46,116 bases of DNA from a virus (taxonomy: Duplodnaviria > Heunggongvirae > Uroviricota > Caudoviricetes). The notes under the pieces are model-generated. The model searched no databases. It was not told where the DNA came from and worked only from the letters and a program-made list of their open reading frames with translations. Below, piece by piece: positions 28,061 to 30,820 of this stretch. The stretch covers positions 1 to 46,116 of IMG/VR virus record IMGVR_UViG_2565956722_000005. The stretch is one strand, 5' to 3'. Position 1 is the stretch's first letter. Each line of letters opens with the position of its first letter. The translations under genes and the position numbers were made by a program.

Positions 28061-28792
28061 TTACATCATGTCTTTTTCTAAAAAAAGTCTTGATGAATAT
28101 TGATGGGGAGGAACACCAAAATATCTTCTGAAAACACTCACAAAATATGACGTGTTTTCATAACCGCATATCTCAGCAACTTTTCCAACAGAATATAAAC
28201 TGTAGCTTAATAACCTTTCCGCCATCACCATTCGCTCTTCAAGAATTAACTTACTAAATGATAAGCCTTCGTGCTTTAATTTTCTTTTTAACAGACTTTC
28301 ACTCAGATACAGTCTTGAAGATATATCACAAAGTCTCCATGCTGCAGATATATCCGTGTGAATAATAGCCTTAACTTTACTTCCTAAACTATTAAGACAT
28401 CCAAATAAAAAACTTTGCACTATTTTCTCTGAAGATAAGATAGCAAGACATGCAAGTGATATTTGATTTCTAACAAAATCCACAGTTCTGCCATCACAAT
28501 TCAAGCATGCAATCAAGTTCTTTAACAATGAAAAATCTTCACATTCCACCATCAAGTATGCCGGATAAAACCTTCTTACAGAAAAAGGTGAGAGTGTGTT
28601 GCTTTTAAAGAAATCATTAACTGTTTTCTCTTCAACATCTACGATCATTACATGATCTATATTTGATGAAAAAAAATCTTTTAAATTGTAATCAATGAGA
28701 ACAGCACTTCCTTTTTTAAACAAAATATCTTCTTTACCAATTCGGACATCAAACGAGTTCAACACCAAAATGATAGAACATATGTATGGCAT
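28061..28792 (-). CDS. AraC/XylS-family transcriptional regulator (AT-rich accessory gene)
   Basis: C-terminal HTH_AraC-like region (...YENTSYFVSVFRRYFGVPPHQY); first ATG at 28792 with AGGTGG upstream (track start 28801 is GTG); AT-rich. Confidence 0.75.
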   Translation of the reverse strand: MPYICSIILVLNSFDVRIGKEDILFKKGSAVLIDYNLKDFFSSNIDHVMIVDVEEKTVNDFFKSNTLSPFSVRRFYPAYLMVECEDFSLLKNLIACLNCDGRTVDFVRNQISLACLAILSSEKIVQSFLFGCLNSLGSKVKAIIHTDISAAWRLCDISSRLYLSESLLKRKLKHEGLSFSKLILEERMVMAERLLSYSLYSVGKVAEICGYENTSYFVSVFRRYFGVPPHQYSSRLFLEKDMM

Positions 28793-29143
28793 ATTATCCA
28801 CCTGATATCATTGGGGTTACACCAGGTAAGTATAGGTGGAAAATCAATATTCGCCAGTTCAACAATAAGGAAAATCTCATTGCATCACAAGTATAAAATT
28901 ATGTATTTAACTCACAAAGACAAATTATTAAACCAATCTGTTATATTATATATAGCTGCGTGGAATCATAATATTATATATTTTGACTGGCATGTTTACC
29001 AACTTTAAGTTGCATCTCAATGGTTTCTTCAGCGTAAACAGAGTTTTTATACAAACTGACACTCTGGGTATCATAGTGTAGTTTTTACGATTGTAAATAT
29101 CCTGCATGCAGGAACTCATCCTTTTGGATGATATCGCATACAA

Positions 29144-30103
29144 TTAATTTACCATCAGTCTTAGAGCCAGTTCGTCCGGATAGGGATCGAAGTAATTCTG
29201 TGTAAGCAAGTAATCATTAGGATACTCACCCAGATAATGCTTCAGCAGAGTCAACGGCGCAAGAAGAGGTAATGTGCCAGAACGATAGTTAAGTATAACC
29301 TCGCTCAACTCTTTACGCTGGCGTGTACTTAAGTAGTTACTAAAATACCCCTGTATATGCATCAGCACATTCGTGTGATTTTTACGTGATGCAGGTTTTC
29401 TGAGAATCGCCATCAGCTTATCACGATACACCTCAAAGTATGATTCAAGGTCCGCCCACTCGTGTATTGCAGCCACAAATGGTCCCATATCTTTATAGCC
29501 TGCCTGACTATGCGCCAACAACTGAAGCTTATAACGACTATGAAAAGCTAATAACTCTCTTCTTGATAATTTCTCCTTGTAAAGGTGATTGAGCTCATGC
29601 AAAGCAAAAACTCTTTCAACAAAATTCTCACGAAGCACTGGATCATGTAATCGCCCATCCTCTTCAACCGGTAGCCAGGAAAACTTTTCCATCAAAGTGC
29701 TCGTAAATAGTCCCACTCCATCTTTACGACCTCGATTACCATTTTCATCATAGACACGCACGCGCTCCATGCCACAGCTGGGAGATTTAGCACAAACCAC
29801 AAACCCCGATACATCCTTTAATTTGTCCATATAAGAACGACTAAACTCTGTCATTCTCTCTGTCACATCCTCATTCTGGTCGTGGCTGAAACACATCCGT
29901 ATATTTCCTTGCGTCGAGCGCACAAGACGTAGAGCAGGACGCGGAACTGGCAGCCCTATAGCCATTTCCGGACATACTGGTCTGAATGTTACCCATTCCA
30001 CTAATTTGTCCATTAAAAAGTCAGCTCTTTTGTGACCACCATCAAAACGAACAGCAGAGCCGGCCAAACAACCGCTGATTCCAATCACAGGTTTTTTTAT
30101 CAT
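29144..30103 (-). CDS. DUF523/DUF1722 fusion protein (YbgA-like)
   Basis: N-terminus VIGISGCLAG...VRFDGGHK with conserved Cys, C-terminal DUF1722-like helical region; family assigned from memory. Confidence 0.6.
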   Translation of the reverse strand: MIKKPVIGISGCLAGSAVRFDGGHKRADFLMDKLVEWVTFRPVCPEMAIGLPVPRPALRLVRSTQGNIRMCFSHDQNEDVTERMTEFSRSYMDKLKDVSGFVVCAKSPSCGMERVRVYDENGNRGRKDGVGLFTSTLMEKFSWLPVEEDGRLHDPVLRENFVERVFALHELNHLYKEKLSRRELLAFHSRYKLQLLAHSQAGYKDMGPFVAAIHEWADLESYFEVYRDKLMAILRKPASRKNHTNVLMHIQGYFSNYLSTRQRKELSEVILNYRSGTLPLLAPLTLLKHYLGEYPNDYLLTQNYFDPYPDELALRLMVN

Positions 30104-30295
30104 ATTCTCCCCCTTGACTAATTCATTAACACATAAACTGTGTAGTGCACGGAATAAATTGCCTTTCTGGCGTCATCACTGACAATTTTTCTGTTATAGA
30201 CTATTCCTAATATAGTATGAAAGTTCTTTAAGTGATCGGTCGTAATCATCTATCTTTCATACTTACTCTCAACTATCAAAAGTACAGGATTTATT

Positions 30296-30820
30296 ATGAA
30301 GTTATGGCCTGTGTTGACTGGCATTGCACTCTCTTTCACTCTTATAGCATGTAAGGCCCCGACACCACCTAAAGGTGTGCAGCCGATTACAAATTTTGAC
30401 GCCAACCGCTACCTCGGAAAATGGTATGAAATAGCTCGCCTCGAGAACCGGTTCGAACGTGGTCTGGAACAGGTCAGCGCTACCTATGGAAAACGGAACG
30501 ACGGAGGGATTCGTGTACTTAACCGTGGATACGATCCAACGAAAAATAAATGGAGCGAGAGCGAAGGTAAAGCATACTTTACTGGAGATACTAAAACTGC
30601 AGCGTTGAAGGTTTCGTTTTTTGGCCCCTTCTATGGTGGCTATAATGTAATCAAACTGGATGATGAGTATAAGTATGCTCTTGTCAGTGGTCCGAACAGA
30701 GAATACCTATGGATTCTGGCAAGGACCCCAACTATTCCAGATAAAGTAAAAGCAGACTATGTGCGAACCGCTCAAAAGTTGGGATTCAATGTCAATGAAT
30801 TATTATGGGTTAAACAATAA
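30296..30820 (+). CDS. bacterial lipocalin (Blc-like outer membrane lipoprotein)
   Basis: Lipobox LIAC; motifs NFDANRYLGKWYEIARLENRFERG and KVSFFGPFYGGYNVI closely resemble E. coli Blc. Confidence 0.85.
   Translation: MKLWPVLTGIALSFTLIACKAPTPPKGVQPITNFDANRYLGKWYEIARLENRFERGLEQVSATYGKRNDGGIRVLNRGYDPTKNKWSESEGKAYFTGDTKTAALKVSFFGPFYGGYNVIKLDDEYKYALVSGPNREYLWILARTPTIPDKVKADYVRTAQKLGFNVNELLWVKQ

Follow-up and report, generated by a model that had tools for sequence, protein, structure and literature searches.

Cargo genes in the Q-S slot of a DLP12-like prophage

The window analyzed here, the full 46,116 nucleotides (nt) of IMG/VR virus record IMGVR_UViG_2565956722_000005, is a lambdoid prophage of the DLP12/phage-21-like kind, nearly complete and in reverse orientation. 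Between its antiterminator gene Q and its S21-type holin gene S lies a block of three genes, encoding an AraC/XylS-family regulator, a protein whose sequence identifies it as RudS, a tRNA 4-thiouridine (s4U) desulfidase, and a Blc-like lipocalin lipoprotein. We consider it probable that this block is accessory (moron) cargo in the late operon, put together from two independently acquired modules and expressed both from promoters of its own and by the Q-dependent late transcript. The main value of the analysis is a correct label, as about 1000 complete Escherichia coli genomes have a RudS gene under the annotation "YbgA family" or "hypothetical." The genes of the block and of its boundaries are as follows.

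27657..27872, minus strand: S21-type holin gene (PF04971, E 2e-35), the first of the lysis genes, bounding the cargo downstream
28061..28801, minus strand: AraC/XylS-family gene (HTH_18, HTH_AraC); 28061..28792 with the likelier ATG at 28792 (243 amino acids [aa])
29144..30103, minus strand: rudS, encoding TudS/DUF523 (2-thiouracil desulfurase) fused to DUF1722 (319 aa)
30296..30820, plus strand: blc-like lipocalin lipoprotein gene (Lipocalin_2, E 7e-44), antisense to the late transcript
30976..31353, minus strand: Q antiterminator gene (PF06530, E 2.5e-51; 125 aa from the annotated ATG)

A reading of the window made from the letters alone (the sequence-only reading) had placed three genes between Q and the lysis genes in AT-rich DNA. 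That placement is correct: the three open reading frames (ORFs) lie where it put them, between Q (30976-31353, minus strand) and the holin gene (27657-27872, minus strand), profile matches bear out all three family assignments, and blc is divergent.

The slot is filled differently in K-12 DLP12. Identity to that prophage is 98% over Q and the region upstream of it and 95% over the S-to-bor segment; in between, homology ends at 30994 and resumes at 27883, with breaks at 30993 and 27884. Within Q, homology to DLP12 quuD thus stops 18 nt short of the stop codon. The K-12 filler is nmpC, a porin gene disrupted by the insertion sequence (IS) IS5 and antisense to the late operon. Base composition deviates as well, with a G+C fraction of 0.29 to 0.46 in the block (0.32 for the AraC gene, 0.435 for rudS, and 0.44 for blc) against about 0.50 to 0.55 in the flanks. 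The Q-S slot is a classical place for moron cargo, and stx of the Stx phages sits there. The cassette therefore shares its position with nmpC and stx, and blc is antisense as nmpC is, but the gene content differs, and the cassette occupies the slot as a stack of two modules.

The middle gene is RudS by sequence

The product of the middle gene matches 2-thiour_desulf (PF04463) over residues 7 to 149 (E 3e-40) and DUF1722 (PF08349) over residues 192 to 309 (E 2e-40). It is 93.4% identical to RudS_vir, the gp66 protein (H3V29_gp66) of phage 1H12, from which it differs at 21 residues. The two proteins share the fusion of TudS/DUF523 to DUF1722, the length of 319 aa, the same three cysteines, and the neighbors Q, blc, AraC, and S. 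These cysteines, Cys12, Cys44, and Cys110, are the [4Fe-4S] cluster ligands of RudS_vir (Table 1 of PMC11417400), and in the window's protein the motifs C44-P-E46 and S-P-S-C110 can be read directly from the sequence. When RudS_vir was expressed in E. coli, tRNA s4U was lowered (Jamontas 2024, PMC11417400), and overexpression of RudS genes reduced E. coli tRNA s4U 4.7- to 26-fold (PMC11417400). The window encodes a DLP12-type allele of this protein; activity is known from RudS_vir and the window's copy from its sequence. The gene shows a ratio of nonsynonymous to synonymous substitutions (dN/dS) of 0.10 to 0.21.

The sequence-only reading had called this protein DUF523/DUF1722 (YbgA-like). Both domains are there, but the "YbgA-like" label is outdated: this is a rudS gene, and an assayed ortholog from the same cassette is 93.4% identical to its product (PMC11417400). 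That paper does not discuss the phage context of RudS_vir. E. coli is said in the literature of 2024 to 2026 to lack RudS and TudS homologues (PMC11417400, PMC13602947). Contrary to these statements, of the 5426 complete E. coli genomes searched, 1064 (about 20%) hold a near-full-length prophage rudS. With about 1000 complete genomes carrying it, the statement is true only for strains without the cargo.

BL21(DE3), the host used for the s4U and UVA assays in PMC11417400, itself holds a remnant of the cassette (L003, NZ_CP081489.1, 2876607-2878003). It comprises Q, blc in intact form, and 147 nt from the 5' end of rudS, and it adjoins O-antigen genes (wbbD) in that assembly.

The genes are inherited together

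The whole block is present, at 80% coverage or more, in 992 of the 5426 E. coli genomes; separate searches at the same threshold found the AraC gene in 993 genomes, rudS in 1064, and blc in 1042. In IMG/VR, Q, blc, rudS, the AraC gene, and the S21 holin gene occur together in 71 of 80 prophage contigs. Among the nine exceptions, four or more are cut off at a contig end, and in one (L138, 6062-6835) the AraC gene has been replaced by IS1; we had considered this locus as a candidate for an alternative module in AraC's place and rejected it on that ground. The order Q, blc, rudS, AraC, S is that of phage 1H12, and the prophage backgrounds include DLP12-like (the window), Qin-like (L005), lambda/Jouyvirus (L001 and L004), and other (IdasGreatGrand) types. 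Across the cassette loci the type of Q is constant and that of the endolysin varies: Q is 96 to 99% identical in nucleotide sequence in all cassette-bearing phages and prophages examined, and the Q protein is at least 95% identical in 78 of the 80 IMG/VR loci. All three genes are under purifying selection (dN/dS of 0.06 to 0.28 between variants at dS of 0.2 to 0.35). The sequence-only reading had proposed a survey of the Q-S interval and had named separate inheritance of the three genes as an outcome that would speak against it; the genes are co-inherited across prophages, so that outcome did not occur.

That reading also did not recognize the combination as a described unit. In the literature that we found, the trio is indeed undescribed as a unit, but two of its members have been published, RudS_vir (PMC11417400) and blc, which is counted among the morons of over half the infant-gut lambda phages in a collection that includes 1H12 (Mathieu 2020, PMC6969025). 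The cassette is therefore largely ordinary, being present in published phage genomes, with one gene assayed and another named a moron.

Three side observations concern the distribution of the cassette. It is often hit by IS elements, by IS1 in L138 and by IS911, IS3, or IS1 in several complete genomes (H1, H9, H21, and H23). Two short contigs (L060 and L065) labeled as the metagenome-assembled genome "Candidatus Nanosynbacter sp." D148_maxbin.008 carry cassette DNA (Q, blc, rudS, AraC, S, and R) at 94 to 100% identity, which is almost certainly binning contamination. In PHROGs, all three protein families are labeled "unknown function."

The block appears to be two juxtaposed modules

Sequence comparison indicates that the block is composite, a divergent blc-rudS pair associated with Q having been placed next to an AraC gene and its terminator associated with the S21 holin gene. 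Four findings lead to this dissection into two stacked morons: homologs of the AraC gene occur alone in the slot, the spacer between the AraC gene and rudS is variable, the G+C fraction is 0.32 on one side of it and 0.43 to 0.44 on the other, and blc and rudS are paired on chromosomes. The noncoding features of the block are listed here.

27978..27999, minus strand: terminator-like hairpin and T-run between the AraC gene and S; 7 pairs, 5 of them G-C, then TTTTCTTTTT (terminator scan)
28793..28844, minus strand: possible hairpin sequestering the Shine-Dalgarno (SD) sequence before the AraC start (inverted repeat I6); UUCCACCU pairs with AGGUGGA (RNA fold)
28802..29143, no strand: variable module junction, likely holding the AraC promoter(s)
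29100..29113, no strand: 14-nt perfect palindrome TCCTGCATGCAGGA, probably due to chance
30104..30295, no strand: divergent blc/rudS control region with a 10-nt inverted repeat inside
30854..30877, minus strand: terminator-like hairpin and T-run, candidate tR'; 9 pairs, 5 of them G-C, then TTTTTCT (terminator scan)
30878..30975, minus strand: expected late promoter pR' and Q-loading region, placed by its position directly downstream of Q

We sought RudS relatives in a collection with one genome per species and examined 62 chromosomal loci. The relatives, 66 to 77% identical to the window's protein, come from Citrobacter, Enterobacter, Leclercia, Kluyvera, Klebsiella, Pectobacterium, and other genera. 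The 62 loci have these gene orders.

blc (minus), MerR/MlrA-like (plus), transthyretin-like (plus), rudS (plus): 36 loci
blc (minus), MerR-like (plus), rudS (plus): 2 loci
blc (minus), transthyretin-like (plus), rudS (plus): 1 locus
blc (minus), rudS (plus), directly adjacent as in the cassette: 2 loci
MerR-like (plus), rudS (plus), no blc: 2 loci
rudS with none of blc, MerR-like, or transthyretin-like genes nearby: 19 loci

Hence blc lies divergently upstream of rudS in 41 of the 62 loci, and none of the 62 holds the AraC gene, Q, or S. The same divergent pairing is seen at the Enterobacter, Leclercia, and Citrobacter loci and at Salmonella ORF242/ORF319 of pathogenicity island SPI-2, with chromosomal Blc about 80% and RudS about 73% identical to the cassette proteins. 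In Citrobacter sedlakii no other gene separates the two, and the spacer is similar in size to that of the cassette. The phage copy differs from the chromosomal loci in having neither the MerR/MlrA-type regulator nor the transthyretin-like gene, in its unrelated spacer, and in its location in a late operon. A search for an inherited MerR operator gave nothing, as the blc-rudS spacer of the cassette could not be aligned with the chromosomal blc-rudS spacers. We had also considered Salmonella ORF242, which lies beside ORF319 (RudS_ST), as an AraC homolog; it belongs to the MerR family (PMC11417400), matching the Enterobacter layout.

The closest RudS relatives (76 to 77% identical, Citrobacter) end a stress-type gene cluster, DUF1365-CMAS-DUF2878-DUF3833, which fits the association with light and stress operons reported for RudS (PMC11417400). 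In Citrobacter braakii ATCC 51113, two contigs (L008 and L009) each carry a rudS gene 76% identical to the window's in what is apparently this same neighborhood, reflecting either duplication or assembly redundancy.

Homologs of the AraC protein with 64% and 56% identity are found alone in the Q-S slot, directly before an S21 holin gene and with the same terminator layout; the Q genes before them belong to different families (PF03589 or PF06323). One of these lone-slot homologs has a relative, with 82% identity, at the tail-fiber/integrase end of phage ev099. The terminator-like hairpin at 27978-27999 is kept in all variants of the cassette, and an equivalent hairpin stands behind a distant homolog in L154. 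The sequence-only reading had given the AraC gene its own terminator; our terminator scan calls this hairpin on the minus strand, and its conservation in diverged copies agrees. By comparison, the module junction at 28802-29143 is the least conserved segment of the block, with 70% identity and 127 gapped columns against 1H12.

The Q side of the block likewise seems to move together. The 30878-30975 region is 91 to 99% conserved among cassette carriers and cannot be aligned with the quuD-nmpC spacer of K-12 DLP12, and in other phages with an 88%-similar Q gene homology is lost exactly where Q ends, so that the late-promoter region would travel with the blc-rudS module. The candidate tR' hairpin next to it is invariant across the 88%, 94%, and 99% variants.

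In the origin that we favor, the first module would consist of Q, its promoter region, and the tR'-like terminator, traveling with a divergent blc-rudS pair copied from an enterobacterial chromosome, where rudS normally stands behind a MerR/MlrA-type gene with blc as its divergent neighbor. The second would be an AT-rich YdeO/AppY/Psr-like AraC gene with its own terminator, traveling with the S21 holin gene. Separated in this way, the modules illustrate how the Q-S slot accumulates cargo: Q accompanies one of them, and the holin gene accompanies the other.

The lipocalin gene is a second blc

E. coli Blc is an RpoS-dependent outer-membrane lipocalin that binds lysophospholipids or fatty acids. 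The cassette protein scores 316.1 bits against the NCBIfam Blc subfamily model (cutoff, 267 bits) and has an E value of 3.5e-69 against E. coli Blc structures. It has the fold family and lipoprotein signal of E. coli Blc (PDB 1QWD, 2ACO, and 3MBT), with a lipobox L-I-A-C19, Lys at position +2, and the N terminus MKLWPVLTGIALSFTLIAC read directly from the translation. Identity to chromosomal E. coli Blc is only 64% (PDB 3MBT), so the cassette gene is a second, horizontally acquired copy, and the outer-membrane location and ligand binding are known for the chromosomal protein only. It is closer, at about 80% identity, to the Blc proteins encoded next to rudS in Enterobacter and Leclercia. The gene has a dN/dS of 0.06 to 0.19.

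The AraC-family protein most likely acts on host genes

The C-terminal double helix-turn-helix of the AraC-family protein matches HTH_18 over residues 161 to 237 (E 4e-15) and also HTH_AraC. Its best NCBIfam match is YdeO (NF007407), full length at 126.6 bits; as this is under the 348-bit cutoff, we regard the protein as a YdeO paralog and not as YdeO. Identity to AppY is 31%, the matching PHROG is 1450 ("unknown function"), and the gene has a dN/dS of 0.28. The more likely start is the ATG at 28792. A literature search found no paper on this protein. It resembles AppY (DLP12), PatE and PsrA/PsrB (O157 prophages), and chromosomal YdeO/GadX in being a small (about 245 aa) AraC/XylS protein from AT-rich DNA with a full-length YdeO-like match. 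AppY, PatE, and PsrA/PsrB are likewise morons of lambdoid prophages, but they lie at the tail-fiber/att end, and the cassette gene lies in the Q-S slot. The relatives AppY, YdeO, PatE, and PsrA/PsrB act on host genes (PMC10877973). By analogy, the cassette protein most likely acts mainly on H-NS-silenced promoters of the host and is not a dedicated regulator of blc and rudS.

The alternative is that the block functions as one self-contained unit: bound to the 10-nt inverted repeat of the blc/rudS region, and perhaps to the palindrome as well, the AraC protein would control both genes. Tight co-inheritance in E. coli is what such a unit would show, and the absence of the chromosomal MerR-type regulator from the cassette makes a replacement regulator plausible. 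The sequence-only reading had taken the palindrome at 29100-29113 and the inverted repeat as signs of local regulation. Both repeats exist where it placed them, but neither supports that idea. The window has three 14-nt perfect palindromes (the other two at 33680 and 38585) against 3.2 expected, and the one in the block is broken in the 1H12/Lambda_2E9 variant and has a point change in 29 of 82 loci with matchable flanks. Since it also lacks a T-run, we rejected it both as an operator and as a terminator.

The inverted repeat, AGTATGAAAG/CTTTCATACT at 30214-30223 and 30254-30263, is perfect over 10 nt. Its chance probability is 0.012 for the blc/rudS spacer alone, 0.065 when all four intergenic regions are considered, and about 0.19 for the 3.1-kb block. 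Of 84 copies, 62 keep the perfect repeat, 20 match at 9 of 10 positions, and 2 match at 8 of 10, these lower values occurring in Qin-type and lambda-type variants, and none of the changes is compensated. As an RNA hairpin we rejected it on the same ground and because the fold is no better than that of shuffled sequence (z-score, -0.5). Read by eye, both arms contain CATACT, a hexamer that resembles a -10 element and is oriented toward the gene on that side; the repeat may simply be a pair of such elements placed back to back.

The marginal inverted repeat without compensatory changes and the chance-level, unconserved palindrome thus leave the local-regulator idea with no positive support beyond linkage. 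AraC homologs occur in the slot or at the tail-fiber end without blc or rudS, about 50 to 70 more genomes have rudS and blc than have the AraC gene (separate counts), IS1 replaces the AraC gene in one IMG/VR locus, and the characterized relatives target host genes (PMC10877973). On this balance we think it unlikely that the block is one unit under its own regulator.

The leader of the AraC gene contains the possible SD-sequestering hairpin (28793-28844). Its stem is kept in 82 to 86% variants with many loop substitutions (the 1H12 variant), with weak z-scores (between -1.2 and -1.8), and the 56 to 64% AraC homologs lack the anti-SD sequence. A second, interleaved repeat (I5) was considered as an alternative structure or pseudoknot with this hairpin and was rejected, as the 1H12 variant has five changes in one arm and the structure is not predicted there. 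Of the 11 inverted repeats listed for 27880-30975, four (I5, I6, I7, and I9) have exactly 30 nt between their arms, probably by coincidence.

Expression of the cassette

Lambdoid phages place pR' immediately downstream of Q. In the window, this position (30878-30975) contains the candidate promoter TTGCTG-N17-TAACAT, found by eye and not called by the promoter scan. It is followed, about 100 nt past Q and so at the expected position of tR', by the terminator-like hairpin at 30854-30877, which is also 34 nt past the blc stop codon. Terminator-like sites thus stand both after the AraC gene and near the blc stop, and promoter-like sites in the block are no more common than in shuffled sequence. 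One of them, TTTACA-16-TATGAT (29097 to 29070, minus strand; 10 of 12 matches), lies upstream of the AraC gene and is conserved in all variants. Gene order and strand fit Q-dependent cargo for rudS and the AraC gene, with blc antisense.

We envisage the following course of events. In the lysogen, each gene would have a weak promoter of its own, and H-NS would probably silence the AraC region. On induction, RNA polymerase modified by Q would start from pR', pass the tR'-like hairpin, and produce a late transcript that is sense for rudS and the AraC gene and antisense for blc and that continues past the second terminator into the lysis genes. RudS, as a [4Fe-4S] desulfidase, would convert s4U at tRNA position 8 (s4U8) to U, lowering the near-UV photosensitivity of translation. 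Lysogenic-conversion cargo, read as well by the Q-dependent late transcript, is the most likely role of the cassette.

Some findings weigh against parts of this reading. RudS_vir desulfidated tRNA less than other RudS proteins did, although it was expressed well, and rescue from the UVA growth delay was demonstrated for the Pseudomonas RudS only (PMC11417400). Linkage of the AraC gene to rudS and blc is near perfect in E. coli (992 of 993 genomes), a pattern also expected of a functional unit; each gene was counted by a search of its own, per-genome overlap having been computed directly for the 80 IMG/VR loci only. The promoter scan of the block gave 13 sites against 10.9 expected in shuffled sequence, and both the pR'/Q-loading site at 30878-30975 and the promoters within the block are unmapped candidates taken from sequence.

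A different role for the same transcript would be lytic. RudS made from the late transcript would erase s4U from host tRNA at induction, thereby sustaining translation or blunting a tRNA-directed response; because induction is often triggered by UV, this would keep translation for virion production running. The position of rudS, in sense orientation in the late operon and directly past the tR'-like terminator region, agrees with this, as do the ability of RudS proteins to cut s4U and shorten the UVA growth delay and the existence of plaque-forming carriers, including 1H12, Lambda_2E9, and IdasGreatGrand. Yet blc is antisense to the late transcript, as is typical of morons expressed in the lysogen, such as bor, and many carriers are defective prophages in which the genes are still under purifying selection. 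Nor does any known defense or counterdefense family match: none of the three proteins matched a PADLOC defense model at an E value of 0.01 or less. We judge a primarily lytic role to be improbable.

That the block is hitchhiking DNA with no current function, kept by lying between the essential genes Q and S, is already disfavored and has very little probability: truncated or IS-interrupted copies (the BL21 remnant and the IS1, IS3, and IS911 insertions) and the PHROGs label of "unknown function" for all three families would agree with it, but about 1000 genomes have intact ORFs, dN/dS is 0.06 to 0.28 at dS of 0.2 to 0.35, the catalytic cysteines are kept, and the 1H12 enzyme is active.

Lysogenic-conversion cargo of this kind would have a wider consequence, which we put forward with considerable doubt. 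About one-fifth of E. coli genomes would gain an s4U eraser via lambdoid prophages, with its gene made part of the Q-dependent late operon; its expression in the lysogen or on induction would strip s4U8 from tRNA and shield translation under sunlight or UV, and the AraC protein would reprogram stress genes of the host. If this is true, a temperate phage changes the tRNA modification of its host.

Two further searches of the block may be recorded. Small ORFs annotated in IdasGreatGrand (corresponding to 28946-29143 and 30118-30249 of the window) have no family matches and were set aside. An Rfam scan of 27600-31500, with E values up to 1, returned only subthreshold chance matches, the best of which (28.6 bits) lies over the tR'-like hairpin.

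Other genes of the prophage

The remainder of the window has the following layout, from right to left.

44908-46116: integrase gene, at the right end of the window
Then: cI-like repressor gene, emrE, homologs of ybcK, ybcL, and ybcM, nin region, Q, and the block
Then: S21 holin gene, endolysin gene of the signal-arrest-release (SAR) type, Rz/Rz1, and bor
Then: terminase gene, head and tail genes, J, lom, and tail-fiber genes

As in K-12 DLP12, the early-right region holds more cargo, at 33059-34417 and 36663-37049. It comprises a ybcM-like AraC-family gene, a ybcL-like gene for a PEBP-family periplasmic protein, and an emrE-like efflux gene of the small multidrug resistance (SMR) family. Counting the ybcM-like gene, the prophage has two AraC-family regulators, which are unrelated to each other. 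An ORF of 580 aa (1-1743, plus strand) starts at the window's left edge, past the tail-fiber genes; it has a weak match to KAP-family P-loop NTPases (E 8e-7) and could be further cargo or a defense-type gene.

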